From: Bacilli bacterium
GTDB lineage: Bacteria > Bacillota_I > Bacilli_A > ML615J-28 > CAG-313
Reading direction: 5' to 3'
DNA: 64,000 nucleotides
Assembly (NCBI GenBank): GCA_900770645.1
Contig: CAAGKY010000102.1
Span: 1,053 to 65,052, forward strand
Below, one piece after another: positions 13,470-63,822 of the stretch. The notes beneath the pieces were generated by a model, which saw only the letters and a list, made by a program, of their open reading frames with translations, did no database searches and was not told where the DNA came from. Numbering within the stretch: the stretch's first letter is position 1; each line of letters opens with the position of its first letter. The translations under genes were made by a program, and so were the position numbers.

Positions 13470-13545
13470 CTATAGGATTAAAAAATTTGCTAAATTATAC
13501 GAACAGCTTGTTTAAAAGCGTATTTTATAAAATAAGGAGTAACTT

Positions 13546-16500
13546 ATGCTAAAAATGATTGTACAACATCGCAGAGGTACGACTGCTGAATGAAAATTAT
13601 CTACAGTAATTCCACTAGAAGGTGAACTTTTAATCGAAGAAACAGTTTCTGATGGAATTAAACTTAAAATTGGTGATGGTAAATCAGGATTCTTAGGCTT
13701 ACCTTATATCACAGATTTACTATCTGATAAAATTACTGCCGCTGAAAAAGAATTGAAAAATGTACAAAGCACTGTTACTGATAATGAAGTTATTAGAAAA
13801 TTAAGAAAAGATTTATCTGACCTTGACACCGAAATTAATCTCTTAAATAGAGAACTAGTAAAAGTTCAAAAAAACGTTGGTGACAAGACTATTAACCCAG
13901 AAACAAACGAAATAACTTATTCTGGACTTCATGCACAATTACAGACAATTAGAAACAGTGTTAATATGTTATCAAATAGAATTAGTGGTTTTACATCTCT
14001 TGAAGAAGGTAGTGTGACAGGAGATGCTGAATTACTAGATATTAGACATGGATTTAACGGAATCGACTATTCGTCTGCTGGAGACGCTGTTAGAGCTATT
14101 GGAGACGAATTACAAGCTTTTAAAGATGCTCTTCCTAGTTTTATTCCTGATAATGCTGTTGATGGATTATCTTATGAGAATAATAAGTTATATCTAACTT
14201 CTCAAGGTATTCAAGTAGGTGACGCAGTAACAATTACAGGAGGTGGCGGCGGTGGCAGCACATCTAGTACAATTATCACTTTAAAGAATAATGAGGGAAC
14301 AACTTCTAATATGTCTGTTTCAAAAGGAACTAAAGTAGAAATTAGTTTTAATTTTAGTTCTATTGAAGAAGGCGTTCCTACAGGAGACGGCGTATATAAT
14401 TTAGAAGTAAACAGTAACCCAGTTGAAACAAATGTTCAACTTTCACAAGGTAATAAGACAATCGATTTAACTAAATATTTAAAAGCTGGAATGAATAGAG
14501 TAAAACTTACTTGTTTCGATTATACTGGTTCTTATAAAAGCTTAGCTTATACGATTAATTTAATAGAGTTATCTATTGATTCATCTTTTGGCCCAAATAT
14601 AAATGATATTACTATATTTGAAGCTGACAATGCGGATGAAAATTTTGTTAGCGTAAATTATAATTATACTACTTATGGACAAGTTACAAAAATTGCTCAT
14701 TTCATATTAGATGATCAAGAAATTACTAATGCAGAAGGAAAACCTCTAATTCAATCACTAGGGGCTGGTGAAAAATCTTCTTCTATTAAGTTTAAGATTT
14801 ACGGACATGGTTGCCATAAATTTCAAGTTTATCTTACAGCCACAGTGAATAATAAAACTATTGAGAGTAATAAATTAACTTATAATATTTTATGTAATTT
14901 ACCAGATCCTGAAGCTACTAGACATCCAGCGATGATCGATTCAGTTTTCGAGATTACTAAAGCGACTCAAGGAGATTTGTTAGAAATACCATACAGAGTA
15001 TATGACCCAAATACTGGTCAAGTAACTGTAAATCTATTAGTTGGATCTGGAACAAAAGATAATTATGTAATAGATGAAAAATTATCTAAAGAAGAATTTG
15101 TCGGTAGAACAAAGCAAAAATGACCGATAAAAAATTATCCTATTGGAAATACTGTATTTATTATTAAATGTGCTTATCAAGTATATAACGAAGAAGGTAT
15201 ATTAACAACATATTATGCAGAAAAAATTCATGAAGTATTTGTAGAAGCACTAGATATTCCAGTAGAAGCTGAAACAGCTAATTTACAACTTTGATTAAGT
15301 GCAAACGGAAGATCTAATGCTGAGCTTAATCCTGCAGTATGAGAATATACTCAAACTGTTGAAACTGCTAATGGAATAGAAGAATTAGATACTATTAGAA
15401 CAACTTTTTCTAACTTTAACTGAGTTAATAACGGATGACTTTCTGACGTTAATGGTGATACTTGTTTAAGATTAAATGGTGCCGCTAAGGCCGTAATTGA
15501 TATTAAACCATTTGAAAAGAACTTTGTTAATACAGGTAAAACTTTTGAATTTGATTTTGTAATTAGAGACGTAAATAATCGTGATAGTACTGTAATTAAC
15601 TGTTTTAGTGGAAATAGAGGCTTTAAAGCTACTGCTGACACTTTTACATTCAGAAGTGAATCTGTTCAAATGTCTTGTAACTATAAAGACGTAACATATT
15701 TAACAAAATTAAATGATAAAACTCAAAAAGAAGAGACTATAGAGCAACTTGAACGAACAAGAATTTCTATTACTATTGCTCCATCTAGTTTAATCGCAGA
15801 TAATGCACCAGATTTGAACACTTATTTTATCTCGATGTATATTAATGGTATTTTATCTAATTGTCAAAAATATGGTGGAATAGATGAAGGATTTACTCAA
15901 AGTAATCCAGTAAAAATTTCTTTAGGTTCAGAAGACTGTGGATTAGATTTATATAGTATACGTATATATGATAGTGCACTTTCTCATAAAGGAATTGTTG
16001 ATAATTATATTGCGGATAGTGCTAATGGTCCAGATAAAATAGATTTATATAGAGAAAATAATATTTATTACGCTGATTCTGAGTTATCAGATCAAATTTC
16101 ATATGAAAGTTTAAAAGGAAAAATTCCAATTGTCACTTTTACTGGTAGAATGCCAACATATAAAGGTGATAAAAAGACAAATTCTGTGCTAATGAAGTTC
16201 GAACATCCAGAACATCCAGAGCTAAATTTTGAAGAAGTATTAAAAGAAATAGACGTACAAGGTACTTCTTCTCAATTCTATGTTCGTAAAAACTGAAAAA
16301 CAAAACATTACGACAAGCATGCTCATATGAAAGGTGAGATTCCAACTAAGGTTTTCTGTTTAAAAGTTGACTACGCTGAAGCCACTGGTACTCATAATAC
16401 TCAAGCTGCAAATTTTGTAGAAACATTATATAATCGTTCTGAAGCTCTTTTACCACCACAAGAAAAAGATTCTAGAGTTCGTTCTACGATTACTGGTTTT

Positions 16501-19500
16501 CCATGCGTTATTTTTGAAAAAGAGACTGCTTCTTCTCGACCAGTTTTCTCAGCAAAAGCAAACTTTAACTTTGACAAAGGTTCTGAAGAGGCATTTGGTT
16601 TTACAGAAGATTATGATGTAGAATCTTGAGAATTTTGTAATAACACTTCAGGTGCATGTAATTTCTTAGAAAAAATTAATACCGAAGCTTGAGCAGCTGT
16701 TTATAGATTATCAGGTGCTACTGAGAATACGTCTATTACGATTACGGCTAATTCTCCTGAAGAGGCTGAAATTATTGCTCGTGAATTATTAGCTACGAAG
16801 TCTTCTGAAGATGCTCAATGAGTTAATGCTAAATATATTGGTGTACATCCTTATTGATTAACTGACTTTGAAGCTAGATATGCTCAAAATACTATGAAGT
16901 ATAGCGATGGTTCTACATTTAAATTTGATAAAGATGAAATGTTCTCTATTGATAGATTTAAAGAGATGCATGATTGAGTTTGTGATACCGCAACAGTTAT
17001 GTACGCTAAGCCAGAAGCTAAGGATGGCTACTGATGAGTAGGTAATAAAAATACTGGATTTGAAATTCTTACAGACGATGATGGAAATATAATTCAACCA
17101 GAGATTATTGAAGACGAAGCAACAAAATCTAAGAATTGATATATTAATGGAGTAGATTCAAAAATATCTAGTCTTGATATCGTTCCAATAAATGTATTCC
17201 CTTTACCTAAACCTGTGACTATTGGAACAGTTGAATATAGAGAAGATAACGTAGATTATCGTAGAGCAAAGTTCGTCAAAGAATTTACAAACTATTTTGA
17301 TGAACACTATGCAGCGGTTTATTATGTATATACTTTTGTCGCATTAATGACCGACCAAAGAGCCAAAAATATGTTCTTAACTTATTGAGGTGAGACTGGT
17401 AAATGATATCCATATTTCTATGATAATGATACTTCTTTTGGTATCAATAATGAAGGTGCTCTTGTTTTCGATTATTATCATGAAGATACTGATACATTAG
17501 ATGGTGCACTAGTTTACAATGGTCAAAATAGTGCATTATGAACAAACTTTAGAGAAAATTTCGAAGACCTAGTTTCTTCAACATATCAAAACTTAAGAAA
17601 TAATGGTAAATTAGATTACGAAAAATTTGTAGAGCAATTTATTAATTGTGGAGCTAAGAAGTGGTCTGCATCTATTTATAATGCTGACGCAGAATATAAA
17701 TATGTGTCTATGGCACGACCTGACAATTTAGGAAACTTTGATGCTGCAAACTTATATCAAGTTAAAGGTTCTGCTGAACAACATTTTAAATACTTTGTTG
17801 CAAATAGATTAAAGTATTGTGATAGTAAGTGAAACTGTGGTGACTACCCGGACGACAAGATTTTCTTACGTATTTATACTCCATCTACAGGTGATAATGC
17901 TATTTTAAATGAGCCAAAACAGATTGACGGATATTGATGGATTGATGGTGTAAACACTGGATACTTAGTTAATACAGATAGCAGTGATCAAATCATAATT
18001 CCAGAAATAAGTGAAAATAATACTTGGATTCTAAATAAAGGTTTAGAAGATCAAGAAATTGATACAGAGATAGAGGTTAGATACGGAAAAGTTGAATTAG
18101 CAGTGGCACCAAATGCTAATATTAGTTTAAAAACATTTTCAGATATGTATGCAGGTGTTAAATACAAAGCAAATGGTACGTTATTAAGAAAGAGAGTTAA
18201 GAAAAATGTAATGTTAACTGGAAAAGACGCATTTATTCCTCCAAAATCAGCTAACGGTTTATCTGAAGTATTTAATGATACTGAAACTGCGATTTATGGT
18301 GCGAGTGAAATTTCTTCTCTTGGAGACCTATCTGGACTTTATTGTGGTGTTATTGATGTTTCAAAAGCTACGAAGTTAACTGAACTAAAAATTGGTAACA
18401 GTACTACTGGTTATTTTAATGATAACTTTAGAGATATTCAATTAGGTAATAATAGATTATTGAAAAAAATTGATTTAACAAATTGTCGAGGTTTAGGAAT
18501 CGCTGGAAAAAGCCCTCAAAAATCTTTAAATGTATCAGGTTGTCCAAACATCGAAGAAATTTTGGTTAAGGGTACAAGTTTAGAATCAATTAACTTGCCA
18601 GCTTCTGGATATATTACAAAACTTGAATTACCAAATACTTTGACAGGTCTAAATATTAGAAATCAAATGTACTTAACAAATAGTGGTATTTTATTGGACG
18701 ATTATTCTAAACTTAAAAAATTACGTATTGAAAACTGTAAAAATATAGATACTTTAGCTCTTCTTAGAAATTGTATAGATAGTTCGAATAACTTTACAGT
18801 TGAACGAATCAAATTAACTGGAATAGATTGAACATTTGATGATCCTGAATTCTTATTATCACTTATGAGTATTAAAGGTATGGACGCAAATGGTTTAGAT
18901 ACTGATCATGTATATCTTGGCGGACATGTTCACATAAAAGAACTTACTGGAGCACAATATACTCGAATATTTGATTACTATAATACTTATCACACTAATG
19001 AATCACTTTTAAAAATTACTTTTGATCGTATGACATCTTATGTATCGTTCTATACTAACGTAAAAGATGGAAATGGAAACTATATTCCATTTACATTCTC
19101 AGATGGAACACCTTGAATCCAAGAAGTTACAAATACACTAAACGATAAAGGAGAAATTGTTCGTAATACGACTGATCCAACAAAAGTTCCTTATTTATAT
19201 GATGGAAAAGAGGAAAAATTACAAACTCCAACTCAAGAAAGCACTATTGAGTTTTCTTATGCATTTAATGGTTGAACACGTACGCCTAATGCTCCTGCTC
19301 AAGTAGATGCATTATTAGACGTTACAGGTGATCGATCTGTTTATAACGCATATGTAAAAACTATTAATAAGTATCCAGTTCAATTTTATACTTATGGTTG
19401 AGATGGTCCAGAGTTATTAAATACGGTTATGACTAATTATGGTGAAATTGCAGAGTATTCTGGTGATACAGCGTTACTGATTAAAGGTAATACTAGTGTA

Positions 19501-20871
19501 CCAGAACGATATGAATTTGTAGGATGATCGCCTGAACCATTAGTTAAGCCTACTACTTTTGATGAAGTTATTAAGACTTACGCTCAGTTTAACTTAGTCG
19601 ATCGAGATGAAGACGGAGATATTTCTGATGAGTGACATATTCCATTACTTGGTGATATTAATTACTCTATAGATGACACTTCAAAGAAGATGAATATTAC
19701 TGCTTACTATAATACTAGTGAACCATTAGTTTATATACCAGAATCTTATTTTATTGGAGACGAGGAATATTCTGTTTACGAGGTTGGTGGTTTTAACGCT
19801 ACAAATGTAGAACATGTTAAATTAGCTGAAGGAATAGAATCTATTTATGGACACCCAATAAATGGAGCATTTGCTGGTGCACAAAATTTAGTTGAAGTAG
19901 ATTTACCAGAAAGTTTGACTACGATTAAAGACAAAGCTTTTTCACAAACTCCTAGATTGACAGAATTATACATTCCAAAAAATGTACAAAGGATCGAAAG
20001 ATCAATTTTAGGTGAAGGTGGACATGTGAAAAATATTACCGTAGATAAAGATAATAAGATCTACGAAGCTATAGATGGATGTTTATTGGGACCTTATTCT
20101 TTATATTCTGCAAATGGAAAAGAGAATGAAAAGATAGTTCTTGCATGTAACACTAATGATGCTTTACCAGACTCTGTACAAGATAAAAATATTGTATGTA
20201 TAGGTACAGATGCATGTAGACAAAATCATTGTACCGAAATAACTATACCCAATACAGTTAAAATATTAGAAAACTTTGCTTTCTTTAGTTGTAAGAATCT
20301 TAAAAAAGTTAACTTATCTAGTAATGTTGAAGAATTTGGATCTGGAGCATTTGGATATTGTGAAAACTTAGAGTCTATCACTTTACCAGAGACTTTAGTT
20401 CAATTATCAAACCATGCGCTAGTTGGATCAAACCTTGAAGAAATTATTGTGCCAGCAAATGTAAAAAATATCTCAATCGAAGCCTTTAGTAAATGTAAAA
20501 ATCTTAAAAAGATTACTTTTATGGGTAAACCTGATAAGATTTCTTGGTCTATACTCGCAGATTCTGGTCATGAGGATGGCTTAGAGATCTATGTAGCTTG
20601 AAATAAAGAAGATAATCGCACGATTGGTGCTGGAGATACTGCCAAACTAGGTGACCCATATACTGCTATACCTTGTGCTTGAGGTGCAGGAGCGCCTATG
20701 CCACAAACACTTGATACAGAATCTGATTATGCCTATAACCGAGAAATTAAGCGTACTCGTAATGTAAAAATTATTTATAAAAATGGTGAAGAGCAATTAT
20801 TATTAGCAGGCGAAAAAGCTTGACCTGATTGATCAGCTATTTCAACATTTATAGATCGAGGAGACAATTAG
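13546..20871 (+). CDS. giant multidomain virion protein (about 2441 aa): fibre N-terminal motif, CotH kinase-like domain, LRR and BspA-type LRR
   Basis: I checked frame continuity across every junction; there is no in-frame TAA or TAG from 13546 to the TAG at 20869-20871. More than 20 in-frame TGAs. CotH-like DQRAKNMFLTYWGETGKW(tga)YPYFYDNDTSFG. LRR region 18100-18830. BspA-like LRR IPxxVxxIxxxAFxxCxxLxxI at 19690-20600. Confidence 0.7.
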
Positions 20872-47077: not shown

Positions 47078-49250
47078 TCGGATCGTACTCTAGAAATCTT
47101 CGGAACTAGGGTTAGCAATTATGCTTAAAATAATCGCGCCACAGGTTGTGACAGGGGTGGTTGTACGAAGAAGCAGGTGTACGTAAAATAACCAAGGATT
47201 ATTAAGATGAGTCAGTGCGGACCACCTGAGGGTTGAAGAAGGCATGGAATAACCATTGGTCTTAATAATGAATTACAAAAACCAGTAATACCACAATGGC
47301 CGTAAACCGTATACGACTCTGGTTGAAGTAGGAGGCACATCGCTGAAATGCGAAGTTAACAAGTAAAAACGGTTTGAGTCAGGGTGATATCTGACAAGTA
47401 CCAGGTGGTAATGGTCATATTGTATAGGTTTTTAATAAGTTTATACTATACAAAATTATGGAGTATTATAAGTTTTTATAGCACCCCTATAAAAAGAGGC
47501 CCTTATAGTACAGAATTATAAAATAACTTAATAGTCGTTGAAAGTGGTATCCATCGGCTGGGATTGAATAGAGTTATAAGATACCCTCTATTCCGGATAC
47601 GTTTAAGGGTAAGACGATAACGAGGCCTATTATTTGGCTAATAATAGGGAAAACCCTTTTGGATCATACTTTAGTTTCTTCGGAGCTAAGGTTTTAAAAA
47701 ATTATTGGGCTGGGCGAAAGCTCTTGGTCCACCAACGACGGGGAATTGCCTCGTCTGGTGTTCAGCGAAAGCTGATAAGTTTATTAAGGGCGAAAGGTGT
47801 TGCGACACCAAGTAGCGATATACACGAGGTTGCGGAGATGCATGTGCGACTCATACAACACCGGCAGGGGGCTAGTTTAAGAGTACAATACCGCTCAGTG
47901 TATAGCTAGGCAACGTAAGTTGTAACAGATAATTCGAGAGTGGTAGAATTTTTGGGTTATCTTAAACGTATTTCTGCGGCAGCAATTGAGCTGTTCTAAG
48001 GAATATAAGAGTATTCAATATGTGTCATGGAGAATACTGCATTTAGGTGTTAGGAACGGACTGTAAGTAAGAAGACAGTATCAGAGATTTAACGACTGAT
48101 TTAGACTTCTTCTCCCTGACTAATTAAATGGAGTGTGATGAACAGCCTAAAATTGTTAAACGGTTCGGGTATACATCGAGAGTATACATTGCTAATCTGT
48201 GGATTAGTTATCTTATTAGTTTCCTGTTCATTTGTGAATTGAGGTAAAGCAATAAGCAAAAGCTAATAATTTTGATCACTTACCGTTGGTGAGATGTGAC
48301 CTCCACTTGGTTGATAACTAGAGTGGCATTAAACTGCCGAATGACTATTCCTTGGGCCAAGGATACGGAAACCTCAGAAGCGGAAATCGCTAACCGTGAT
48401 TGTCATTGCACGTCGGAAACCCTTTTCCGTAAAATTGGGGACTTAATAGTAACTAGGTTAAAAAACTACTATTGATGTCGCGTATCGTCAGCCGATCTAG
48501 TAGGCTTGTGTTAGTACTAACAGGGACGCTCTCTGTAATCCTACAAGCGATAGTAGGTAATTTTATTATAGTGGCTTTTGTATTAGACATTAGTTATTTA
48601 TAATAAAATTTATAACAAGTGTGGTTTCTACTATAAGTGAGGCCAACTAGCAGTAAGTCTAATTTTATATTTAGGATGTCGACAGATATAGATTAGCAAC
48701 TAGTATATATTTCTATTATTATATAATTCCTGGCAGCGCTAGGTTTAGCAAAGTTGAACGTAAAAAGATGGGTGTCTCAGTTCTAAGAAGTAAGTTATAT
48801 AAAATAGAAATTTGTAGACTTCTCCATCAGGCCTCTGCCTTTTGGTATGCACACTTGATGGCGATCTGCCAAATAGATCCATACACGCCGCCATTGTTGT
48901 TTTTGGGTTAATGTACTATTGAGCATGCAGGTCTTTGGACTTCAGTAGAGTTAACTCTGTGGTAATAAGTCTGTTTGTCAGACTCGGCGTACCATGTATG
49001 GCCATTTAATGCTCTTCAGGCAGTCTGTAAGAGTAGTATAGTAGTAAATTTTCTTCCCGCACCTCGGCAAGACAGCGAGACAGTTTGTGCATGTGCCCCA
49101 GGGAAGCAGAGCTTGATATCTCTATCGTCTCAAAAGTTATCCGTAACATTGAGCGCAGGTAAGCTAATTTAGTCTTGACCTGGACCGTGATAAAAACTTC
49201 CTTTACGTGAATGAGGACCTGACTGAGGATATGTTAGAAGTCAGAGCGCT
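47078..49250 (+). ncRNA. about 2.1-kb ORF-free, GC-elevated segment between tRNA genes: candidate giant structured ncRNA(s) or intron
   Basis: No ORF over 91 aa in any frame even allowing TGA. The two track ORFs (47634..47909, 48975..49172) lack an RBS and end at TAG. GC clearly above the genome background. Multiple GNRA-type hairpins (ACGGAAACCT, AGCGGAAATCGCT, CGGAAACCC). Internal promoter-like TATATAAT at about 48700 followed by TCCTGGCAGCGCTAGG. Confidence 0.45.
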
Positions 49251-50648: not shown

Positions 50649-50750
50649 ATATTTATTTTTTAATTAGACTTAATGTAATTGATTCGATTTAGAAACTATC
50701 CACCAAATATTTGCTAAATTAAATGTATTTAGTTAATTTAAGGAGTTTTT

Positions 50751-51731
50751 ATGAAAGTAATTAAGACATATATTTGCGAATGTAACAGAGAATTTAGTAA
50801 CCCACAAAGCTTTAACGGCCATAAGAGTCACTGCAAAATTCATATGATAGCTACAAATAAATATGATAAGTTTTTACAAGATGATAACATACGTCATGAA
50901 AAACAGAGAGCTACTATACAATATAAAAAAATAAATCAATTAAAAATAGCTGAACAAAATAGTGAAAACAATACAAAAATCTGAAAAGCTAAAAAATATA
51001 CTTGCGAAAAGTGTGGAAAAGTGATGACTGAAAAATTTGGCTCAGGTAGATTTTGTTCAAGAGCTTGTGCTAACAGTCGAAATCATTCAGAAGAAACAAA
51101 GAATAAAATTAAATTATCAAATACTGGAAAAACATTTATTTCTTCAAAAGTTGTTGATAGAGAAATTGCTATTGAACTATATAATCAATCTCCAAAATAT
51201 TGTATTGATTGCAATACTTCATTACCCTTTGAGCGTCGTAAAAAAGACAGATGTTTAGACTGTGCAGATATTCATAAAAGACAGTTGTTATCAATAAACT
51301 CAAAAAAATGAGTTGAAATCTATGGAGGTAACATAAACAAATTTGGCACAAGAGGCCGAGCTAAATACGGTTGATATAAAGGTTTTCATTGTGATAGCTC
51401 TTTTGAATTAGCTTATGTTGTGTATTGTCTAGAACATGGTATAAATATTCAGAGAAATAAACAAGGTTTTGAATATGAATATAATGATAAAAAGCATTTA
51501 TACTATCCAGATTTTATTGTAGATGATACATATATCGAAATAAAAAATTATTGAAGCTCTGAAGTGCAAGCTAAGATAAATTATTTTCCTAAGAATTTAA
51601 ACTATAAAATTTTATATAAAAAAGATCTGACAAGTATATTATCTTTTGTTATTGAGAAGTATGGGTGTGACTACACGGCAGCTCTCTATGATAGAACCCT
51701 ACCAAGTTATTTAGATAAAAATAAGAAGTAA
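50751..51731 (+). CDS. homing-endonuclease-like protein: C2H2-like zinc finger, NUMOD3 motif, PD-(D/E)xK-like C-terminal domain; several in-frame TGAs
   Basis: One frame through TGAs at 50982, 51309, 51369 and 51552 to TAA at 51729. CECNREF...HKSHC. GSGRFCSRACANSRNHSEETKNKIKLSNTGK (NUMOD3). YYPDFIVDDTYIEIK. Confidence 0.65.
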
Positions 51732-51821
51732 TTCATAAATGAGGCTTATTATAGTCTCATTTTTTTTATTTTTATTTATTTGCTAAATTAATTGATAAAT
51801 TTGAAGTATAGGAGTTTTACT

Positions 51822-52448
51822 ATGATTAATACTATTCAATTACGTAAAATGTTAGGTTGATTAGGTATGTTATTACCTTGGATTGTTGCCGCTTTATATA
51901 TGATTTTTGAAGTTGGCCGTTTTGTTTTTCCACAATCAATTTCAGCAACTTATTATGAAAGTAGTTGTATTACACCATTTATGATTATTTTAGGATCAGC
52001 TGGAATTTTATTAATTTGTTATGAAGGATATGATAAGCAAGATAATATTATTTGTACAATTGCAGGATTTTTTGGTTTAGGAATTTGTATTTTCCCATGT
52101 GATAATGCTGCTCTTGATAGAGTTGGAACTTTTCAATTACCTACAATGGTAAGTCATTGATTACATATGATTTTTGCAATAGCGTTCTTTGCATTATTAT
52201 CTTATAACTCATTATTCTTATTTACTAAATCTAGTGGTGAAATGACAAAAGAGAAAAAAATAAGAAATATTATTTTTAGAGTTTGTGGTATAGGAATGAT
52301 TGCATCATTTGTTTTAATTATTCCACTTTCATTAATTAATTATGGATCAACTTTCTGGTTAGTGGAAGCAATCGCATTAATGTTCTTTGGAATTAGCTGA
52401 TTAACTAAATCACAATGTTATAAGTGATTATTTAAAGACAAAGAATAG
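51822..52448 (+). CDS. polytopic membrane protein (about 6 TM helices), TGA-containing
   Basis: GGAG RBS. One frame across TGAs at 51855, 52158 and 52398 to TAG at 52446. Confidence 0.6.
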
Positions 52449-52496
52449 AGTAATTTATAATTTTTCTATAACTAACTGTGATATTTACACGAAAAA

Positions 52497-52540
52497 AACT
52501 GTATATTATTATATAACTGTAATATACAGTTTTTATTTTG
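52497..52540 (+). terminator. rho-independent terminator
   Basis: Stem AACTGTATAT/ATATACAGTT followed by TTTTATTTT. Confidence 0.55.
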
Positions 52541-52559
52541 ACTAGAGGAGAGTGTAAAT

Positions 52560-53228
52560 ATGTCATTAATCGTAGCAATTAAAGATAAAGACAGAGTTCT
52601 TTTAGGCGCTGATAAACAAGTTAGTGCAGGTGGAAAAAAAGACCATACTTCTACAAAGATTTGGGAAGTAAAGGAGTTGCCTGGAGCATTACTTGGTGGA
52701 GTTGGTTCTGCTAGAGCTTCTCAGATTATTCAGTACTCACAAATAGTTGATAAGAATGCGGCTATGAGAGGAATTGATACAGAATTTGTCGTGTGTTCTC
52801 TTGTTCCGACCATTGCGACAACTTTAAAAGCTGGAGGAATTGTTGTTGAACCACATAAAGATGGAGAATTCACGATGATGCCAAATGCTTTTGTATTTGC
52901 ATACAAATCTCAAGCTTGGGTTATTTGGAATGACTTAAGTGTTATTGAAATATCAGACTATTTTGCTATCGGTAGCGGTTCAGATGTAGCTAATGGTGCA
53001 TTATTCGCAACAAGAGATAAAAATCCTTTTGAGAGAATTGTTACTTGCATTTATGCAGCTGCAGACTCTACATTATTTGTAGATAATGGAATTGACTTAT
53101 TAGCTACTGAGCAAAGATCGAAAGATTTGAAACTTGCTAGTAAAGCTCTTGGAATCGATCTTCAAACAAATGCCAAAAAAGAAAATCGCACAAATAGTAC
53201 AGAAGAAACTACTGAAAATTTAGATTAA
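52560..53228 (+). CDS. HslV/proteasome-beta-like Ntn-hydrolase peptidase
   Basis: MSLIVAIKDKDRVLLGADKQVSAGG...AIGSGSDVANGALFA is collinear with the HslV fold. No HslU partner in the window. Confidence 0.55.
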   Translation: MSLIVAIKDKDRVLLGADKQVSAGGKKDHTSTKIWEVKELPGALLGGVGSARASQIIQYSQIVDKNAAMRGIDTEFVVCSLVPTIATTLKAGGIVVEPHKDGEFTMMPNAFVFAYKSQAWVIWNDLSVIEISDYFAIGSGSDVANGALFATRDKNPFERIVTCIYAAADSTLFVDNGIDLLATEQRSKDLKLASKALGIDLQTNAKKENRTNSTEETTENLD

Positions 53229-53323
53229 TAAATTAATAATTTAATAAAAACTTCGATAAAAATATTGGCTAAATTAATTGATTACGAAAGATGATTTTAG
53301 CCATACACGGAGGTTTTTTGTTC

Positions 53324-53932
53324 ATGAATCAAATTTGAATATCGGTATTAACAACAATTTGCACTGTAATAGCTTCATTAGCAGCTACATTAATATTTAA
53401 TAAATTAACAGGGTTACCTAAAAAAATAAAAGATCAAAAGAAAGCTGAAGCAGCTAAAGAAGCCCAATTAAATGATAGACTACAAGATTTTGATGATAGA
53501 CTTGCTAAAGTTGAAGAAGCTGTTAGTCATTATCCTGAATATAGAAATCAAAGTCTTGAGATGCAAAATCAATTACAATGTGCAGATAATGCAATTGTAG
53601 AACTTTGCAGAGAAATCAAAAATGACGTAGTAGCTAATGGTGAAATGATGAATGCTAGATTGTCTTCTCTAGAACGTCGTGAAAAGAATTCTTTACGTGC
53701 AAAAATTTTGGCTGAATATAGATTATATACAGATGAAATTAAAAATCCAATGCAAGCTTGGTCTGAAATGGAGCATCATTCATTCTTTAAATTAGTAGAA
53801 GATTATGAGTCTTTAGGTGGAAATGATTATGTTCATGGAACAATTTTGCCTGTAATGAATGAATTAGATATAATTCCAATGGATGATTTAAAAGCTTTAA
53901 AAAACTTATATACTAGCAGAAATGTTAAATAA
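53324..53932 (+). CDS. N-terminally membrane-anchored protein, possibly a lysis or spanin-type accessory protein
   Basis: GGAGG RBS. TGA at codon 5. One TM segment then a coiled-coil region. Continuous with the track ORF 53561... Confidence 0.45.
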
Positions 53933-56854: not shown

Positions 56855-58939
56855 TTATTTACTATTTACTGTACATACACAATTTTTAAGAGGTTTTACT
56901 CCAACGACACCACCAGCTCCACGGCCTTTATCTACTAAGTCTTTTATTTTTATTTCTTTATCTTTTTTTCCGTTATTTAGAATTATAGTATCTTCATCTG
57001 TAGCTAACTTGCATTCAATAATTTCATCGTCTTCTAAAACTTTCATAACTGGTGCACCAACAACTTTACTTAGTTTAACTACTAAATCAGTTTTAATCTT
57101 TTTAATTAGTCCATTTTTAGTAACAAAAATTAAGAAAGGTATCTGTTCATCTTCAGTATATATTCCAACAATTTTTTCATTAAATAATTCATATAAATTC
57201 ATTCCAGTAGAATTAATATTGCACAAATCGATTTTATTTACACTTAATTTGTACATAGTTCCAGTATTTGAAATTAATACAAATCTATCTTTTAAACTTA
57301 GTTCAACTGTATGAGTAATAGTATCTTCTTCAGTTAGTAGTTTTTGTTTCTTATTTGCATCATTCAAAGTCATACGTTTAATTGTATTTCCTTTAGTTAA
57401 AGCGATAACAAAGTTTTCTACTTTTTTCTCTTCATGTTTTTTAAGCATTGTTTTTTCTACATCTAAATCTATATCGATCACTTCAGTTCGTCTTGTCCAA
57501 CCATATTTATCTACAAAATTAGATAATCTATTTAGAAATTCTTTCTTTTGAAGATTTTTTGAGGCTAAAAATTTATTACATTTATTAATTACTTTATTTA
57601 GTTCAACTTGTTCTTTATTTAATTCAGTAATCTCTAAATTAGCTAATTTTCCTAATCTCATATCAACGATAGCTTTTGCTTGATTTGCAGTAAATGAATA
57701 TAAGTTGATTAGATTTGTTCTTGCTTCGTCAGAACTCTTAGAAGCTTTAATTGTCTTAATAATCTCATCAATAATAGAAATAGCTCTAATTAGTCCATCA
57801 ACTATCTCTAATCTTTTCTCAGCTTTATCTAGTTCGAATCTATATTCTTTAATTAAACAGTTAATATTATGTTCTACATAAACTTTAATATATTCTTTTA
57901 AGTTTAGTAAAGTTGGAATTCCATCTACTAATGCCATTTGATTAGCATTAAAAGTTGATTGTAATTCTGTTAATTTATATAACTTAGTTAATACAATATT
58001 TGGATCATCTGAACACTCAATTTCAATATTTAAACCATTATCGTCTGATTTGTTACAAATATCTTCAATACCAGTTAAAGTATTTGCGTTAACTAAATCT
58101 TTAATTTTTTGAATAAATGGTTCAGCATAAGTTTGATAAGGTAATTCGGTAATATTAATATTTTTCTTATTAATTTTCGTTTTACCACGTAATACTACAG
58201 CACCTTTTCCAGTTTCATAAATCTTTTTAATTTCAGATTTATTAATAATAATACCACCAGTTGGAAAATCTGGATAAATATTATCATATGTAATATTATT
58301 TGTGTCGACATATTCTTTAACTTTTTCGAAGAGTTCATTTAAATTTCCAGGTTCCCATTCTTGAGCTATTGTATAACCAATACCTTGTGAACCATTTACA
58401 AATAATCTTGGAAAAATCGCTGGAAATATTTTTGGCCAATACTCGTCTTCTGAAAAGTTTAAAATCATTTCAGAAGTATTTTTCTTAATATTTTCAAAGA
58501 AGCCATCTTCAACTGATTTAGCTAATCTACATTCTGTGTATCTTGAACTTGCAGCGTCTGGCCCACCTAATAGAGAACCATTGGCTCCATGAAAATCTAT
58601 TTCACAAATGTTATTTACCCACGGTTGAGACATACGAACAAGAGCTTCATATACTGAACCATCACCGTGTGGATGCCAAGTAGCAATAGTTCCACCAGTT
58701 ACTTTTGCTGATTTAACATGTGGTTTATTAGAAGAATAGTTTTTAACAAACATTTCCCATAATGTAGCTCGTTGAACTGGTTTTAGTCCATCTGCTGCAC
58801 TTGGAAAAGCACGATTGTTATTAACTTCTGTAGCATAAACTAAAAAGTCATTACTTAACTCTTCTTCAATACTAATTTCATTATTGTTTTGATTATCGTT
58901 TAAAATATCGTCAAATAATCCGTTTACTTTATCTTTCAT
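56855..58939 (-). CDS. DNA topoisomerase II medium subunit (GyrA-like; T4 gp52-like)
   Basis: ADGLKPVQRATLW and catalytic-Tyr region SSRYTECRLA. 694 aa. No TGA. Confidence 0.85.
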   Translation of the reverse strand: MKDKVNGLFDDILNDNQNNNEISIEEELSNDFLVYATEVNNNRAFPSAADGLKPVQRATLWEMFVKNYSSNKPHVKSAKVTGGTIATWHPHGDGSVYEALVRMSQPWVNNICEIDFHGANGSLLGGPDAASSRYTECRLAKSVEDGFFENIKKNTSEMILNFSEDEYWPKIFPAIFPRLFVNGSQGIGYTIAQEWEPGNLNELFEKVKEYVDTNNITYDNIYPDFPTGGIIINKSEIKKIYETGKGAVVLRGKTKINKKNINITELPYQTYAEPFIQKIKDLVNANTLTGIEDICNKSDDNGLNIEIECSDDPNIVLTKLYKLTELQSTFNANQMALVDGIPTLLNLKEYIKVYVEHNINCLIKEYRFELDKAEKRLEIVDGLIRAISIIDEIIKTIKASKSSDEARTNLINLYSFTANQAKAIVDMRLGKLANLEITELNKEQVELNKVINKCNKFLASKNLQKKEFLNRLSNFVDKYGWTRRTEVIDIDLDVEKTMLKKHEEKKVENFVIALTKGNTIKRMTLNDANKKQKLLTEEDTITHTVELSLKDRFVLISNTGTMYKLSVNKIDLCNINSTGMNLYELFNEKIVGIYTEDEQIPFLIFVTKNGLIKKIKTDLVVKLSKVVGAPVMKVLEDDEIIECKLATDEDTIILNNGKKDKEIKIKDLVDKGRGAGGVVGVKPLKNCVCTVNSK

Positions 58940-58952
58940 GCTTTTCCTCCAA

Positions 58953-60839
58953 TTAATTTATTAATGTTGAATCATAGTTATCTAATAAAAAAGTTCTTCT
59001 ACTCTCAACATTATTTCCAAAGAAACACTCTAATAGTTCGTCAGCTTTATTTTCATCAATAACTTTAATCGTCTTAACGTTTCTAGTTGCTGGGTCTAAT
59101 AAACAATATTTTAATTCTGTAGGATCTTGTTCACCTAACCCTTTGTTTCTTGAGATTAAATAGTCATTTTTTGGATGTTGTTTTTTGTATTTTTCTAATT
59201 CTGCTTTATCTTTTAAATAAATATATTTATTATCTTTAGTTGTAATTCTGAATAGTGGTGGAATAGCAACTGCAATATGTCCGTTGCTTAATAATTCTGG
59301 ACATAACCACCAAAACATATTAATTAATAATGATCGAATATTTGCACCATCTTCATCTCCATCGGCTGCAAGTATAATTTGATTATATCTTAATTTTTTA
59401 ATATCGTAAATTAGTTTACCAGTTTCTTTATTAATTTCTAAACCAATAGCTTTTACAATATTAGAGATTTCTTGATTTGCATAAACTTTATCTGTTGTTG
59501 CTTTTCTACAAGATAAAACTTTACCACGAATTGGGAAAATTGCTTGTGTTTTACCATCTCTTTTTGCAACTAAACCGTTTGCAGCAGAATCACCTTCTGT
59601 AATAAATAGTGAACATTCTAATCTATTTTTTGAATACGCATCAATCAACTTAGTTGGAAGATTAATGAACTTCTTTCCTTTTGTTGTTGCATTTCTAATT
59701 TTTTCTTTTGCTTTTTGAGAAGCTTCTCGAACTTTTCTAGCAACTAATGCTTTATCAATAATAATTTTTGCATCTTTTTGATTATTATTTAACCAAGATG
59801 CAAAGTCATTATTTAAAACATTATTAATTAAAACTTTATTTAAATCAACAACTTTTGTTTTTGTTTGTGAGTCGTATTTAACATTTGTTGTTTTAATGTT
59901 AAATACTAGGAATAATCCTTCAGAAATTTCTGCTTGAGTTAAAGCAGCATCATTTTTCTTTAATAAATTATTGTCTACAGCAAATTTGTTTAACTGTCTA
60001 GTTAATGCAGCTTTAACGGTTCCAATATGTACACCAGACTCAGTTAAACCATAATTTACATAAGCTGTAATATTTTCAGAATAATCTGAAGTATAAGTAA
60101 TAGCTACATCAAATAAATCATTATTAAATTCTTTTCTTAAACTAAATCTATTAGAAAGAATTTCTTTATCTCCAATTTTTTTATTCAATAAATCTTGAAT
60201 TCCATTTTTAGATTGGAATACATAAGTATTTGTTTTTTCTTTTTTAATTACTGTTAAGTTAATTGTTAGTTGTGGACATAGAGCTGAAATATCTTCAAAT
60301 AATTTCTTAATGTCTGTTTCATTAACTTCTACATTTTGAAAAAATTGCTCATCTGGTGACCAAGTTACAGTTGTTCCAGACTTATTATCTATATCTTTAT
60401 TAACTTCTCTTTTTACAAATACTCCATCTTCAAACCATATTTTTTCATATTTTTTACCGTTTGAAGAATAAACAATTAAGTAATGCGATAAATAGTTAGT
60501 TAGTTTTGAACCTATACCATTTAACCCAAGAGACGCTCCAGAATAAACTCCATCATCATCATATTTTCCAGATGTATTAAATCTATCAAAGGCTGCTTGA
60601 AGAATTGTTTCTCCGTCTTTTTCTATATTAATAGGAAAACCTTGACCATTGTCTTCGACAATATATTCGTTTTTGTCATAATTTAAAACAATATTAATAG
60701 CATCTCCATGACCGATAATGTGCTCATCTAAAGAATTACTAAAAATTTCTCTTACTAACTGCGTTGAGTATTCATTACTGCCTAAATACGTAGCTGGGCA
60801 GTTATCGCAAACGGGTAAATTCTCTTGGGTTAAGAGAAA
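58953..60839 (-). CDS. DNA topoisomerase II large subunit (GyrB-like; T4 gp39/gp60-like): GHKL ATPase, transducer and TOPRIM domains; start anomalous
   Basis: Hand translation of 60189-60839 continues the track ORF upstream. N-box EIFSNSLDE. G1 box IVEDNGQGFP. G2 TSGKYDDDGVYSGASLGLNGIGSKL. TOPRIM ITEGDSA. In-frame TAA at 60840-60842; only ATG is 60849-60851 (M-R-V-stop). Confidence 0.8.
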   Translation of the reverse strand, partial: FLLTQENLPVCDNCPATYLGSNEYSTQLVREIFSNSLDEHIIGHGDAINIVLNYDKNEYIVEDNGQGFPINIEKDGETILQAAFDRFNTSGKYDDDGVYSGASLGLNGIGSKLTNYLSHYLIVYSSNGKKYEKIWFEDGVFVKREVNKDIDNKSGTTVTWSPDEQFFQNVEVNETDIKKLFEDISALCPQLTINLTVIKKEKTNTYVFQSKNGIQDLLNKKIGDKEILSNRFSLRKEFNNDLFDVAITYTSDYSENITAYVNYGLTESGVHIGTVKAALTRQLNKFAVDNNLLKKNDAALTQAEISEGLFLVFNIKTTNVKYDSQTKTKVVDLNKVLINNVLNNDFASWLNNNQKDAKIIIDKALVARKVREASQKAKEKIRNATTKGKKFINLPTKLIDAYSKNRLECSLFITEGDSAANGLVAKRDGKTQAIFPIRGKVLSCRKATTDKVYANQEISNIVKAIGLEINKETGKLIYDIKKLRYNQIILAADGDEDGANIRSLLINMFWWLCPELLSNGHIAVAIPPLFRITTKDNKYIYLKDKAELEKYKKQHPKNDYLISRNKGLGEQDPTELKYCLLDPATRNVKTIKVIDENKADELLECFFGNNVESRRTFLLDNYDSTLIN

Positions 60840-60865
60840 TTATACTCTCATTAGTGTATAAATTT

Positions 60866-61492
60866 TTATCCGTTTTTTGCATCAGCATCACCTTCTTTCT
60901 TTATTTTAAAATTAATATACCAATCTTTTTGATTGTATTTGTTTTTACAGTAATCTATATATTTATTATACTCATTACTTGTAATAAATATCACATTATT
61001 TTGCAATCCACATTGATGCTTAGCTTCATATAAACCATCTTGGGAATGATCATATGGATTGCACATTGTACCATCCTTTTTAAAAAAATGGTTGCCCTTA
61101 ACTTCTAATAAGCTATCATTACTTACAAAATCTGGATAATATCTGTGCAGTTTGTCTTTATAAATAAACTCAAAATATAAATCAGTATTGCGAGAAATTG
61201 CTATGCCATTATCTATGAAGTATATAAATAAAGCTAATTCTGGAATTGTATCAAAGCTTGTGCTATTATACACATATTTTTTCTTTAATCGTTTAAAAAA
61301 TTCAGGACTTTGTGCGTAGTTGCGCACACCATATCTTTTTAATGTCGTTTCTTCTTGGCGTGTTTTTATTAATTTATTAAGGTCTTCTTTTGACTTAAGA
61401 TTATTGTTTCTAAGAGCTGTAGCAATAACTTTTTCAGAGAGCTCTTTACTCGCAAATCCGACACCGCCGTATTTTTCTTTTTGTAACCTCAT
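60866..61492 (-). CDS. endonuclease-like protein with tandem (K/R)YGG(V/I)G(F/N)ASK repeats and YYPDF...EVKG (PD-(D/E)xK-like) motif
   Basis: Track ORF. Same frame stays open upstream to 61921 with two more repeat units (RYGGIGNASKIIGDK; KYGSKTYFQTDEF) but no ATG, GTG or TTG start. Confidence 0.45.
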   Translation of the reverse strand: MRLQKEKYGGVGFASKELSEKVIATALRNNNLKSKEDLNKLIKTRQEETTLKRYGVRNYAQSPEFFKRLKKKYVYNSTSFDTIPELALFIYFIDNGIAISRNTDLYFEFIYKDKLHRYYPDFVSNDSLLEVKGNHFFKKDGTMCNPYDHSQDGLYEAKHQCGLQNNVIFITSNEYNKYIDYCKNKYNQKDWYINFKIKKEGDADAKNG

Positions 61493-62416
61493 ATTATTTT
61501 CAACAAATTCTTTTAATTGAAATACATAATCGACATTATAACGAGCTCTTGTTGTTTTTCTAATTTTATCACCAATAATCTTACTAGCATTACCTATGCC
61601 GCCGTATCTGTCATTTTGTATAGTTTTATTATACTGTATAAATTCATCAGTTTGAAAATATGTTTTAGAGCCATATTTTTCTAAATTAGTGTTTGCTACT
61701 TTTTCTCTAACTATTTCTAATTTATTTACATTTGTAACACCGTATAGTTCTAAACAAGTATCTTTTCTTTTTTTATTTGCAAATTGTACGTCTTCTGCTC
61801 GAGAATGAATACTTATATTGTTTTCCTGCAGAAATCTTATAAGCTTTTCTTTTCTACATTCAAAATGTTCTGCAGTGTCCTGAGTGCTATGATTTGTATA
61901 ATAGTCTAATACTTCATTTAGATTAAAAATTAATTTGTAATTAATTTTACATTGGCCAGGTACTCAGCCACTTGGCTGAGTATTCTCTTCAAAATATTTA
62001 CAGTCAATACCATTATTATAAATTTTTTTCACATTAATACCTACCTTAATATTGTTTATAAATAATTTAGCATATTATTTTAAATTACGTATAATTTCTG
62101 GGCACAGTCTCGTAAAATTACATCGATATTTTACGCAATATATAATATTATACAATAAAAATTACTCATATATACGCGCGTGCGCATTTAATTATATAAA
62201 AATATAAACTAGATATTAATAATATACAAAAAATATTTTTTTAAATTGATGATTATAAAAAAATAAAAAATAAAACTGTATAATATTTTGTGAGGTATTT
62301 ATGTATGGAAGATAGTAAAATTAAAGAACAAGACTTAGATTATGAAGGTTGGAGAAAATATATTGAGCAACTATATGCATTCTATCGACAAATAGATGAA
62401 GATAGCGAGAAGGAGA

Positions 62417-62737
62417 AAGAGAAAAATGATAACTAAAGAAGCTTTTTTGTCTGCTTTTGACACTATAAAACTGCACAGAAACCTTGAATTAAATCTATGT
62501 AGTACACTAGAGTCATTGACTGATGGATGTATTTGCGATGCTTTAATTTATTCTAGATATGAAGATTTAGTTGTTAATTTATTAGAAGAAATTTTTGACA
62601 CAACACTTATTTCTTATTATCTATATGAATTAGATTTTGGTGAAAGATGGACTAGTAATTGTTCACTAGATGAAGAAGAGGCAAATGCACTAAAAGATCC
62701 TGAATCTTTATATGATTATTTAATAAAAAATAAATAA
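62417..62737 (+). CDS. hypothetical protein
   Basis: GAAGGAGAAAGAG RBS before ATG at 62417. Confidence 0.4.
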   Translation, partial: KRKMITKEAFLSAFDTIKLHRNLELNLCSTLESLTDGCICDALIYSRYEDLVVNLLEEIFDTTLISYYLYELDFGERWTSNCSLDEEEANALKDPESLYDYLIKNK

Positions 62738-62814: not shown

Positions 62815-63261
62815 ATGAAAGAAATGAAAAAAATCTATTTAGCTGGTGGATGGTTTACTCCACAACAAGAAGAAGAACATACTCGAATATATAATTGCAT
62901 TAAAAATGATTTTGATGTGTTTAATCCTAAATTAGAGTCACTAGTTACTCCAGGAGCAACAGATGATTTTATGACTCAAACTCTTTTAGGAAATATTCGT
63001 GGAATTGAAGAAGCTGATTTAGTTTTAGTTATTTATGATTATAAAGACACTGGAACTATTTGGGAAGCTGGTCATGCTTATGCTAGTAAAAAACCAATTT
63101 TATACTATGCTGAAACTTTAGGAGATAAAAAATTTAATTTGATGCTAGCTAAGACTGGAAATTTTGTAGCTAATATGGAAGATTTAGTAGAAGCTTTAGA
63201 AAAAGAAGAAACATTTAAATATAAAGATGTTTATCATTCTTACAGTGGAGGTGTTGAGTAA
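62815..63261 (+). CDS. nucleoside 2-deoxyribosyltransferase-like protein
   Basis: KIYLAGGWF N-terminal motif and overall size typical of the NDT family. Confidence 0.6.
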   Translation: MKEMKKIYLAGGWFTPQQEEEHTRIYNCIKNDFDVFNPKLESLVTPGATDDFMTQTLLGNIRGIEEADLVLVIYDYKDTGTIWEAGHAYASKKPILYYAETLGDKKFNLMLAKTGNFVANMEDLVEALEKEETFKYKDVYHSYSGGVE

Positions 63262-63264
63262 AAA

Positions 63265-63822
63265 ATGATTATTGGTCATGAGAGTTATAAATTAGACGCA
63301 GCTGTAGATAAAGAATTATATAAGATGAGTAATATCTGGAGATATTCTTCTAGATTAATTCAAAAACCAGAGAATTTAGCTGAACATAGTTTTTATGTAG
63401 CGGTTAAAGTTCAACAATTAGGACACGCTTTTGGAATCTCTGAAGAAAGAATTACAAAAGCTACAAAAATTGCTCTATGTCATGATTTAGGAGAAATTTA
63501 TACTGGAGATATTCCTCATTCATTAAAATCATATTCTCCAGAGATTTGTCGTTTATCTGAAGAATTAGAATTAAAACTAATTAAAGAGAACTTTCCTTAT
63601 TTTGGAAAAGAATTTGAAGATTTTGTATCTAATGTTGATCCAGTAGTATCTACTCTAGTTGTATTAGCTGATGTAGCAGATGTAATTATGTTTATTGATA
63701 GAGAAGAATCTTTAGGAAATAAAGACCCAGATATTTTACAAATTAGATCTGAGAGCAACGAAAGATACATTAAATTAACAATTAAATTAGAAGAATTGTT
63801 AAAAGCTGAAAAAAATAATTAA
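63265..63822 (+). CDS. HD-domain phosphohydrolase (YfbR-like 5'-deoxynucleotidase family)
   Basis: EHSFYVA...ALCHDLGEIYTGDIP gives the H...HD...D metal-binding pattern. Confidence 0.7.
   Translation: MIIGHESYKLDAAVDKELYKMSNIWRYSSRLIQKPENLAEHSFYVAVKVQQLGHAFGISEERITKATKIALCHDLGEIYTGDIPHSLKSYSPEICRLSEELELKLIKENFPYFGKEFEDFVSNVDPVVSTLVVLADVADVIMFIDREESLGNKDPDILQIRSESNERYIKLTIKLEELLKAEKNN

Follow-up and report, generated by a model that had tools for sequence, protein, structure and literature searches.

For a long time nearly all that was known of programmed translational bypassing came from a single phage cassette (T4 gene 60 with its homologues) and a single lineage of yeast mitochondria, and the literature on bypassing which we searched describes only the homologues of gene 60. 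In T4 the endonuclease MobA and the 50-nucleotide (nt) gap of gene 60 form one mobile element, in which the gap protects against nicking by MobA and makes room for foreign DNA within coding sequence of high conservation (bioRxiv 10.1101/2022.08.31.505936); the same work reports that re-pairing in the ribosomal P site tolerates mismatches. The byps of Magnusiomyces capitatus mitochondria are, according to Lang 2014 and Nosek 2015 as cited in that work and in PMC5009743, GC-cluster-like inserts of 27-55 nt, with 81 copies across the mitochondrial genome. Over shorter distances, synthetic stop-hops with matched codons flanking a stop decode 9 nt as one amino acid in E. coli (Weiss et al. 1987, as summarised in PMC5009743), and +1 frameshifting at shifty stops is treated in PMC1874602. 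Of natural in-frame stop hopping, a 2016 review states that "no occurences are known" (PMC5009743). Here we describe a locus in a stretch of 64,000 nt of contig CAAGKY010000102.1 (assembly GCA_900770645.1, positions 1,053 to 65,052; hereafter the window, meaning this whole stretch), in which the gene for the large, GyrB-like subunit of a phage type II topoisomerase is interrupted after codon 26 by the seven nucleotides TAACTGC, which bring in a stop codon and a change of frame.

The insert is real and linked to an endonuclease gene lying directly upstream, and this we state with high confidence. Our explanation is that the insert would be the edge of a mobile cassette that includes this endonuclease gene, and that ribosomes would hop over it instead of translating it. 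To this explanation in full, including the choice of hopping over frameshifting or readthrough, we assign from the sequences a probability of roughly 0.55.

An interrupted topoisomerase gene

The features of the topoisomerase locus, in positions of the window, are as follows.

60805..60882, minus strand: topoisomerase II large subunit (GyrB-like), segment 1, ATG plus 25 codons (MQKTDKNLYTNESIISLNPREFTRLR)
60805..60807, minus strand: proposed take-off codon CGA (Arg26), the last codon matching the relatives before the insert; CGT at the same place in the distant phage contig L012
60802..60804, minus strand: TAA stop in the start frame, directly 3' of the take-off codon and followed by C
60798..60804, minus strand: 7-nt coding gap TAACTGC, placed by alignment; identical in the related contigs L023, L024, L025 and L026
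60800-60798, minus strand: proposed landing triplet TGC, the last three bases of the gap, which an ICG anticodon would read provided that G.U is tolerated at the first codon position
58953..60797, minus strand: large subunit, segment 2, which starts with CCA (Pro), ends with TAA and has 614 codons; its frame is +1 to that of segment 1
56855..58939, minus strand: partner subunit, GyrA/ParC-like, 694 amino acids, intact (PF00521 on the equivalent gene of the relatives; ratio of nonsynonymous to synonymous substitution rates, dN/dS, 0.058)
60840..60851, minus strand: ATG AGA GTA TAA, in the +1 frame inside segment 1, over codons 11-14 (N-E-S-I); no role

The true start of the gene is ATG 60882-60880, which is preceded by the Shine-Dalgarno-like sequence GAAGGTGA, and the 26-codon frame opened by it encodes a homologue of the N-terminus of the relatives, that is, the N-terminal arm of GyrB-type proteins. 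This frame ends with TAA 60804-60802, and a three-way DNA alignment with the uninterrupted genes of the related contigs L001 and L003 places the insert (60804-60798) exactly between CGA (Arg26) and CCA (Pro). Beyond it the gene resumes in the +1 frame with PATYLGS and continues to the stop at 58955-58953. This downstream frame is open from just 3' of a TAA at 60842-60840 and contains no ATG, GTG or TTG until TTG 60188, which makes a start-less lead of 217 codons and puts the first canonical start 203 codons 3' of the gap. CGA is a minor codon, accounting for 10% of Arg codons in the window. A tandem duplication was considered as the origin of the seven nucleotides and rejected, as on inspection the insert repeats neither flank.

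Joined without the seven nucleotides, LNPREFTRLR of the first frame and PATYLGS of the second rebuild the N-terminal motif that is universal in the ATPase subunits of type IIA topoisomerases, and only then is the contiguous N-terminal arm [RK]-x-[RK]-P-x-x-Y-I/L-G present (...FTRLR|PATYLGS). The joined protein of 640 amino acids aligns end to end with the NCBIfam GyrB and ParE models from model position 4 (E=1e-135, below the equivalog cut-offs), and has the order of GHKL ATPase, transducer, Toprim and C-terminal domains that is typical of these subunits; its homologues carry PF02518 (HATPase_c), PF00204 (DNA_gyraseB), PF01751 (Toprim) and PF00986 (DNA_gyraseB_C). Once TGA is read as sense, as this genome does (see below), the topoisomerase gene is the sole gene of the window with a long start-less lead; open reading frames (ORFs) of 2442, 845 and 843 codons run unbroken and no other broken gene was found. 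Read from its sequence, the large-subunit gene is not expressible by ordinary decoding.

A preliminary description of this DNA had placed the problem elsewhere, at an in-frame TAA three codons after what it took for the only possible ATG. The string ATG AGA GTA TAA does exist at 60851-60840, and its ATG (60851-60849) shares the frame of the long ORF, but it is neither the only ATG nor the start of the gene, which lies 31 nt further upstream. What had been read as the conserved N-terminus, TQENLPVCDNC, turns out to be a wrong-frame translation of SLNPREFTRLR plus the insert. The idea that TAA 60842-60840 is decoded as sense or re-initiated past, which would have given the spacing of the T4 protein, is not supported, as that ATG is in the wrong frame and what interrupts the gene is a stop at codon 27 together with a +1 change of frame. 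Readthrough of the same TAA is likewise rejected, since it stands in the wrong frame inside real N-terminal codons and TAA or TAG ends 37 of the 37 long genes. The description was right that the gene reaches upstream of the annotated ORF start, as the N, G1 and G2 boxes all lie 5' of TTG 60188, and its suggestion of a programmed event akin to T4 gene 60 stands as an idea, the stop and the frame change together blocking ordinary decoding. An alternative genetic code as the cause was also discarded: the genome reads TGA as sense, yet no TGA occurs in the topoisomerase gene, which is interrupted by a TAA and a frame change.

Interrupted and plain alleles in related phages

Among the 120 database proteins most similar to the joined protein, called lengths run from 584 to 694 residues, and 118 are full-length (626-694). 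In every homologue whose N-terminus was inspected (approximately 70) the R-x-R-P/A/S junction is contiguous, with no residue inserted; a relative 66% identical on the 237-kb IMG/VR contig L001, for example, has one uninterrupted ORF (MKKDKTLYTEDSIKTLSPRDFTRLRPATYLGSNEYSTQL...). The interrupted form was reached in contig L023, an ENA assembly found through a homologue of the upstream gene, which is colinear with window positions 62074-57963 at 88.4% nucleotide identity and carries the identical ...CGT TTG CGA TAACTGC CCA GCT... sequence. Two further ENA assemblies from different BioSamples (L024 and L025) are identical to L023 and have the same insert, as does the Logan assembly L026, which is 93.3% identical to the window at the nucleotide level. 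Two gene calls of 626 amino acids (P0262 and P0271) begin with MTQENLPVCDNCPATYLGS, the translation of this DNA when the gap is read through, and so imply the insert as well. Five gap alleles are full-length (1.8 kb) and L026 is partial (1.3 kb); none of the six has secondary stops or frameshifts. Gene callers shorten the topoisomerase to 411, 587 or 626 residues, with the consequence that such alleles are mislabelled as fragments or pseudogenes.

A second type of insert interrupts the same codon in L012, a distant phage whose topoisomerase is called at 587 residues (P0115). Here the gene reads ATG ... TTT ACC CGT TTA CGT TAG CGA CCC TCT ACT TAT TTA GGT, so that the insert is 6 nt long and in frame, consisting of a stop and a second Arg codon (F T R L R stop R P S T Y L G). 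The topoisomerases of L012 and the window are about 64% identical in amino acids and their endonucleases, which belong to the same family and lie directly upstream in both, 48%. Both insert types open with a stop directly after an Arg codon, followed by C; the take-off Arg is CGN in both, whereas plain alleles mostly have AGA. The window layout, CGA TAA CTGC CCA, would match that of L012 (in the form CGA TAA CGC CCA) were it not for one T. A third type of allele (L010 and L011; protein P0002) has no gap, and topoisomerase residues 27 to approximately 130 are replaced by a divergent sequence whose first residue falls exactly at the junction (RLR|PGVYAGD).

Gap, plain and L010-type alleles coexist in one cluster at 90% identity. 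The body of the window gene 3' of the gap is 99.0% identical in amino acids to the plain allele P0268, as against 93.6% to the gap allele L023. Its N-terminal 26 residues, on the other hand, belong to the gap-allele type and differ from P0268 at 10 of 25 aligned residues; the N-terminus of the plain allele is MAIDKTKYTEESIKSLSPLEFTRLR, unlike the cassette-type N-terminus common to the gap alleles. The surroundings of the gap are among the better conserved parts, with 3 differences per 100 nt where the average is 11.6, but other stretches equal this value and it is not used as evidence.

Searches for further examples were otherwise negative: megablast of the region against GenBank phages gave no match, tblastn returned only relatives at no more than 33% identity, and scans of IMG/VR, JGI metagenome and GTDB genomes with degenerate DNA patterns for interrupted junctions returned only the chance matches L004/L005, L006 and L027 (L004 and L027 were read and are unrelated; L006 was judged from its organism title). 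Two truncated gene calls were also rejected as gap alleles, P0243 (L028) lying on a short contig with unrelated sequence at its 5' end and P0100 (L013) having a different oddity, an in-frame TAG at codon 5.

Two side observations may be recorded here. The first concerns L013 itself (Logan SRR3181106 contig, positions 2203-2240), where ATG AGT AAA AAA TAG ATA GGC GAT... stands behind a strong GAGGAG; the TAG follows codon 4, no other start precedes the conserved N-terminus, and an unrelated ORF with a weak PD-(D/E)XK match lies upstream of the topoisomerase. It may be another site of recoding, or a junction scar, at this same hot spot. The second is that window positions 60128-60247 (120 nt) and 58149-58231 (83 nt) are identical to L023 against a background divergence of 11.6%, which suggests mosaic recombination.

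The endonuclease gene and the proposed mobile cassette

Directly upstream of the topoisomerase are the following features.

60866..62032, minus strand: homing-endonuclease-like gene, 388 amino acids, GTG start behind AAGGTAGGT, TGA as Trp at 61966-61964
60870..62194, minus strand: 1.3-kb insertion relative to the endonuclease-free contig L003, from the breaks in blastn colinearity

The ORF listed here as 208 amino acids is really 388 when the TGA is read as Trp in PSGWVPG (code-4 translation), and its last codons overlap the Shine-Dalgarno sequence and the start of the topoisomerase gene. The protein consists of helical repeats followed by a C-terminal domain with a PD...ExK motif. It matches DUF7487 in Pfam (E=2e-17) and PHROG 3339 and 12131, annotated as "homing endonuclease", and the same Pfam and PHROG scans gave no MobA, HNH or GIY-YIG match. 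E265, P300-D301, E310 and K312 are invariant in 43 DUF7487 homologues. An AlphaFold model (pLDDT, the predicted local confidence score, 88) gave only weak Foldseek matches in the PDB (all E>0.1), among which PD-(D/E)XK nucleases (for instance I-Bth0305I and I-Ssp6803I) and two homing endonucleases are represented, and a sequence search of the PDB gave no match.

The endonuclease gene ends just before, and overlaps, the topoisomerase start in all gap alleles for which upstream DNA is available (window, L023-L026 and L012), and is absent from the locus in the plain alleles L001, L003 and L007-9. In other phages, relatives of the endonuclease adjoin recA-like, DNA polymerase, ribonucleotide reductase and tail genes, and jumbo phages have several copies; presence or absence at one locus, together with relatives beside other conserved genes, is the behavior of a free-standing homing endonuclease. 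All three endonuclease-linked allele types are altered at or just after RLR|P, two by a gap and the L010 type by the PGVYAGD replacement.

Compared with the syntenic L003, the 1.3-kb insertion replaces approximately 55 nt which include the native 5' untranslated region, the start codon and the first topoisomerase codons. The cassette would be made up of the DUF7487 endonuclease gene, a new ribosome-binding site and start, 26 codons and the 7-nt gap, the gap being its 3' edge, placed exactly at the conserved Arg|Pro junction of RLRPxTYxG. The endonuclease gene, the start, the 26 codons and the gap appear to move together into different backgrounds, because the window gene body is closer to the plain allele P0268 than to the gap allele L023 while its first 26 residues are of the gap type, and the allele types share one cluster. 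We infer that the enzyme would cleave the plain junction; the gap would break up this target and make cassette-bearing genomes immune, and, if untranslated, it would do so while leaving unchanged a motif in which no inspected relative has an insertion.

Two further observations concern the endonuclease family. The third allele type (L010:1726-2875 and L010:2862-3250) has, upstream of its divergent topoisomerase, a CopG/RHH-like ORF of 54 amino acids and, where the other types have their endonuclease gene, an endonuclease variant of 332 amino acids with the same nuclease domain and a different N-terminal part. In the window, positions 51339-51545 (plus strand), within the ORF at 50742-51731 which has four in-frame TGAs, give a partial match to the DUF7487 nuclease domain (41% over 70 amino acids).

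Proposed decoding

In the proposed hop, CGA (Arg26) would be in the P site with UAA-C in the A site, where termination would be slow. The peptidyl-tRNA-Arg would unpair, the mRNA would slip by 7 nt and the anticodon would re-pair with UGC, with a G.U pair at the first position, a pair which also occurs in the prfB shift. Decoding would restart at CCA, so that ten nucleotides would yield one Arg and the product would read ...FTRLRPATYLGS...; a peptide diagnostic of hopping would span FTRLRPATYLGSNEYSTQLVR, where a frameshift product would contain ...LRNCPATY... instead. In L012 a single tRNA-Arg would read both CGU and CGA flanking the UAG, with nine nucleotides giving one amino acid.

A single landing rule, the first downstream triplet fitting [C/U]G[U/C/A], gives +7 in the window (UGC) and +6 in L012 (CGA) and restores RLRP in both, no earlier triplet in either gap fitting this pattern. 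In both alleles a slow A-site codon comes next to the take-off codon, UAA behind CGA in the window and UAG behind CGU in L012, and TAA and TAG are genuine stops here. The landing match is full for an ICG anticodon in L012 (CGU/CGA), whereas in the window (CGA/UGC) it would require the G.U pair at position 1.

Two RNA structures are predicted near the site, which are either confined to gap alleles or stronger in them.

60820..60838, minus strand: hairpin of 7 bp by prediction, UUCUCUU-AACCC-AAGAGAA, with 12 nt between its end and the take-off codon 3' of it; it may be a 5' stem-loop
60777..60802, minus strand: predicted stem-loop of ACUGCC (stop and gap) with GGCAGU (Gly-Ser codons), 14-nt loop; a possible counterpart of gene 60's take-off stem-loop

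The first has -5.7 kcal/mol in the window, L023, L026 and L012, and 0 to -2.7 in plain and L010-type alleles. In L003 the peptide SLNPR is encoded as well, and synonymous differences alone account for the missing hairpin; no covariation was found in this hairpin, and the gap alleles share ancestry. The second has -7.7 kcal/mol and is not significant against shuffled sequences (z = -0.76). L012 has an analogous stem of 10 bp which takes in CGU and UAG (z = -1.7) and in which both partners of two pairs are altered. Both elements are suggestive leads only, predicted as they are from related cassettes.

Is the interrupted gene kept functional?

Between gap alleles dN/dS is 0.04-0.06, both over the 614 codons and over the first 200, which is the same as in the partner subunit, while in wrong frames the ratio exceeds 1.5; for the 200 codons that precede TTG 60188 it is approximately 0.05. 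In cassette codons 13-26 all differences between the window and L012 are synonymous, though the endonucleases are only 48% identical. From these patterns we hold with moderate confidence that the gene stays functional.

Several points weigh against our explanation. The UGC landing triplet would be only near-cognate, and the tRNA-Arg could have either an ICG or a UCG anticodon; no tRNA-Arg gene was found among the tRNA genes of the window. The synthetic stop-hops made by Weiss in 1987 are said to have been inefficient, and no strong stimulator was found here, both predicted hairpins being modest and not significant against shuffles. As the cassette moves between backgrounds, the low dN/dS may largely predate its entry and is not decisive alone, and the two insert types may share ancestry, in which case they would not be fully independent evidence. 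Finally, the nuclease fold is assigned tentatively, from the motif and from weak fold matches of a model.

Alternative explanations

The gap could instead be translated, a possibility which we consider doubtful though by no means negligible. In the window this would happen by a +1 frameshift at CGA-U-AAC, through base occlusion or a quadruplet, to give RLR-Asn-Cys-PATYLGS, and in L012 by readthrough of UAG to give RLR-X-Arg-PSTYLGS; the products would be longer by two residues at the hinge that joins the N-terminal arm to the ATPase core. A poor stop with a sense codon before it and C after it is the classic layout of +1 shifty stops such as prfB (CUU UGA C) and antizyme (UCC UGA U), the codon concerned is a minor one (10% of Arg codons), both inserts would add exactly two codons and no non-adjacent re-pairing would be needed. 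Against this, there is no Shine-Dalgarno-like stimulator 3 nt upstream, unlike in prfB, and two mechanisms would be required for two inserts at one site. The Arg or Arg-like triplet before Pro in both inserts would also go unexplained, and if two extra residues were acceptable a stop-free, in-frame sense insert would be simpler. We favor a gap that is not translated because no inserted residue is present at the junction in any of the approximately 70 inspected relatives.

The interrupted alleles might also be non-functional, with a cassette that repeatedly invades, kills the gene and persists by homing, the intact frames merely reflecting recent invasion. The cassette is mobile, the window gene body is 99% identical to a plain allele, so that invasion may be recent, dN/dS could predate the insert, and T4 topoisomerase mutants are viable with a "DNA-delay" phenotype. 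We nonetheless regard this as unlikely: the cassette brings its own Shine-Dalgarno sequence, ATG and 26 conserved codons, which are intact across lineages whose endonucleases are 48% identical and of which the motif part has only synonymous changes; the layout restoring frame and motif is kept in both insert types; and none of the six gap alleles has secondary lesions, while the partner subunit is intact. Slightly less likely still is the production of two polypeptides, a 26-residue peptide ending at the TAA and a re-initiated protein of 614 residues, which would assemble non-covalently like T4 gp39/gp60. Endonuclease insertions do split T4 genes 39/60 and Aeh1 nrdA into interacting halves, and in P0262 and P0271 a TTG lies in the downstream frame 13 codons before the gap. 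This TTG is not conserved, however, and the window, L023, L026 and L012 have, close to the gap, neither ATG, GTG or TTG in the downstream frame nor a Shine-Dalgarno sequence; the window has its first canonical start so far downstream (203 codons) that codons under a dN/dS of 0.05 would be skipped. An internal non-AUG start, which the preliminary description mentions, finds no conserved start codon there. A sequencing or assembly artefact, which had also been proposed, has hardly any probability. The contig of the window is not in the DNA collections searched, so that contig support for the insert comes from relatives and not from the source reads of the window. The insert is not an error because it is identical in independent assemblies: the 7 nt recur in four other contigs from four different assemblies that differ by 7-12% elsewhere, P0262 and P0271 imply them as well, and the rest of the window has no broken genes.

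Genome context

The window has a GC content of approximately 30% and 12 tRNA genes, none of them for Arg and none a suppressor, and contigs of related phages reach approximately 240 kb. TGA is a sense codon, apparently Trp: 68 in-frame TGAs occur in 37 long ORFs in Trp-like contexts (e.g., SAYQI-TGA-LDLG), and genes end with TAA in 25 of 37 cases, with TAG in 12 and with TGA in none. The endonuclease genes of L012 and L010 also have in-frame TGA as sense in Trp-like contexts. Regions of the window with in-frame TGAs include 4918-29945 and 50742-53932, and a single ORF of 2442 codons (13543-20871) has 30 of them; they cluster in genes of structural or late appearance, and the topoisomerase genes have none.

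An Rfam scan of the window found only tRNAs and one DUF3800-XI RNA, with nothing at the gap site. The DUF3800-XI match is at 47706-47752 (plus strand), where many tRNA genes lie, and scores 53.6 bits (gathering score 37.8). Between the topoisomerase genes and the divergently oriented genes of nucleotide metabolism, the intergenic region is a variable hot spot, where a 113-amino-acid ORF at 62396-62737 (plus strand; PHROG 28377, function unknown) is an insertion relative to L003 and is present in L010. Next to the topoisomerase locus are genes for a nucleoside 2-deoxyribosyltransferase-like protein and a YfbR-like HD 5'-deoxynucleotidase (62815-63822, plus strand). In L003 and L007 a Thy1 (ThyX) gene adjoins the nucleotide-metabolism genes; this set of genes may relate to modified nucleotide metabolism.

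Comparison with known systems

As in T4 gene 60 with MobA (Huang 1988; Bonocora 2011; Manning & Atkins), the gene concerned encodes the large subunit of a phage type II topoisomerase, and a free-standing homing endonuclease gene, here a putative one, adjoins a non-coding insert in an invariant coding motif. In both systems a stop comes right after the take-off codon, the take-off and landing triplets may be readable by one tRNA here as they are in T4, and endonuclease, flanking codons and gap travel together, with a presumed self-protection which does not alter the conserved protein segment. The endonuclease here is a DUF7487 protein with a PD...ExK motif and not MobA (or the GIY-YIG/VSR enzymes replacing it); the site is Arg|Pro at codon 27, at the start of the ATPase domain, and not Gly46/Asp45 in the Toprim domain; and the gene continues as one frame after the gap and is not split into two ORFs. 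The gap is 6-7 nt long with Arg codons, where that of T4 has 50 nt with matched GGA/GAY, and there is no KKYK-type nascent-peptide signal, no mini-Shine-Dalgarno and no forward-slippage barrier, the predicted stem-loops being only loosely alike. Unlike T4, these phages read TGA as sense and have a GC content of approximately 30%. No sequence homology to the gene 60 cassette was seen, and the locus is not a member of the T4 gene 60/MobA cassette family but is like it in logic only.

With regard to decoding, the closest counterparts are the synthetic stop-hops, with their slow A-site stop and P-site re-pairing: CGU UAG CGA of L012 is exactly their layout and CGA UAA C UGC of the window would be a 10-nt variant of it. 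Unlike the engineered cases, the layout here is natural and stands in a conserved gene, in four sequence types from DNA and two inferred from gene calls. The shifty stops of prfB/RF2 and antizyme resemble the window type in having a sense codon, then a stop in weak context followed by C, with a net +1 shift. They involve a shift of one base, by overlapping re-pairing or base occlusion, and serve autoregulation, whereas a +1 shift here would add two residues to an invariant motif, and with the L012 allele being in frame such a shift cannot be general at this site. The byps of M. capitatus, as far as the accounts cited above cover them, are also short mobile non-coding inserts in essential genes which are skipped at translation, with imperfect take-off and landing sites and an undecodable A-site codon; unlike the window gap, they have in those accounts no link to an endonuclease gene and need special mitochondrial decoding.

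Whether this is the first natural, maintained short-range stop-hop, spending 9-10 nt on one Arg and left behind in the same enzyme as an immunity scar by another homing endonuclease, with an origin independent of T4 gene 60, is in our judgement an evenly balanced question. If so, the locus would be a second, unrelated case of a phage topoisomerase whose coding gap is linked to an endonuclease; it has natural inserts of two kinds, one in frame and one +1, as well as plain alleles beside them, and would offer a compact system of approximately 80 nt for the minimal signals by which a ribosome skips a stop. Endonuclease-driven gaps rescued by hopping would then be a recurrent solution, for which a gap of 6-7 nt and an imperfect landing triplet would suffice.

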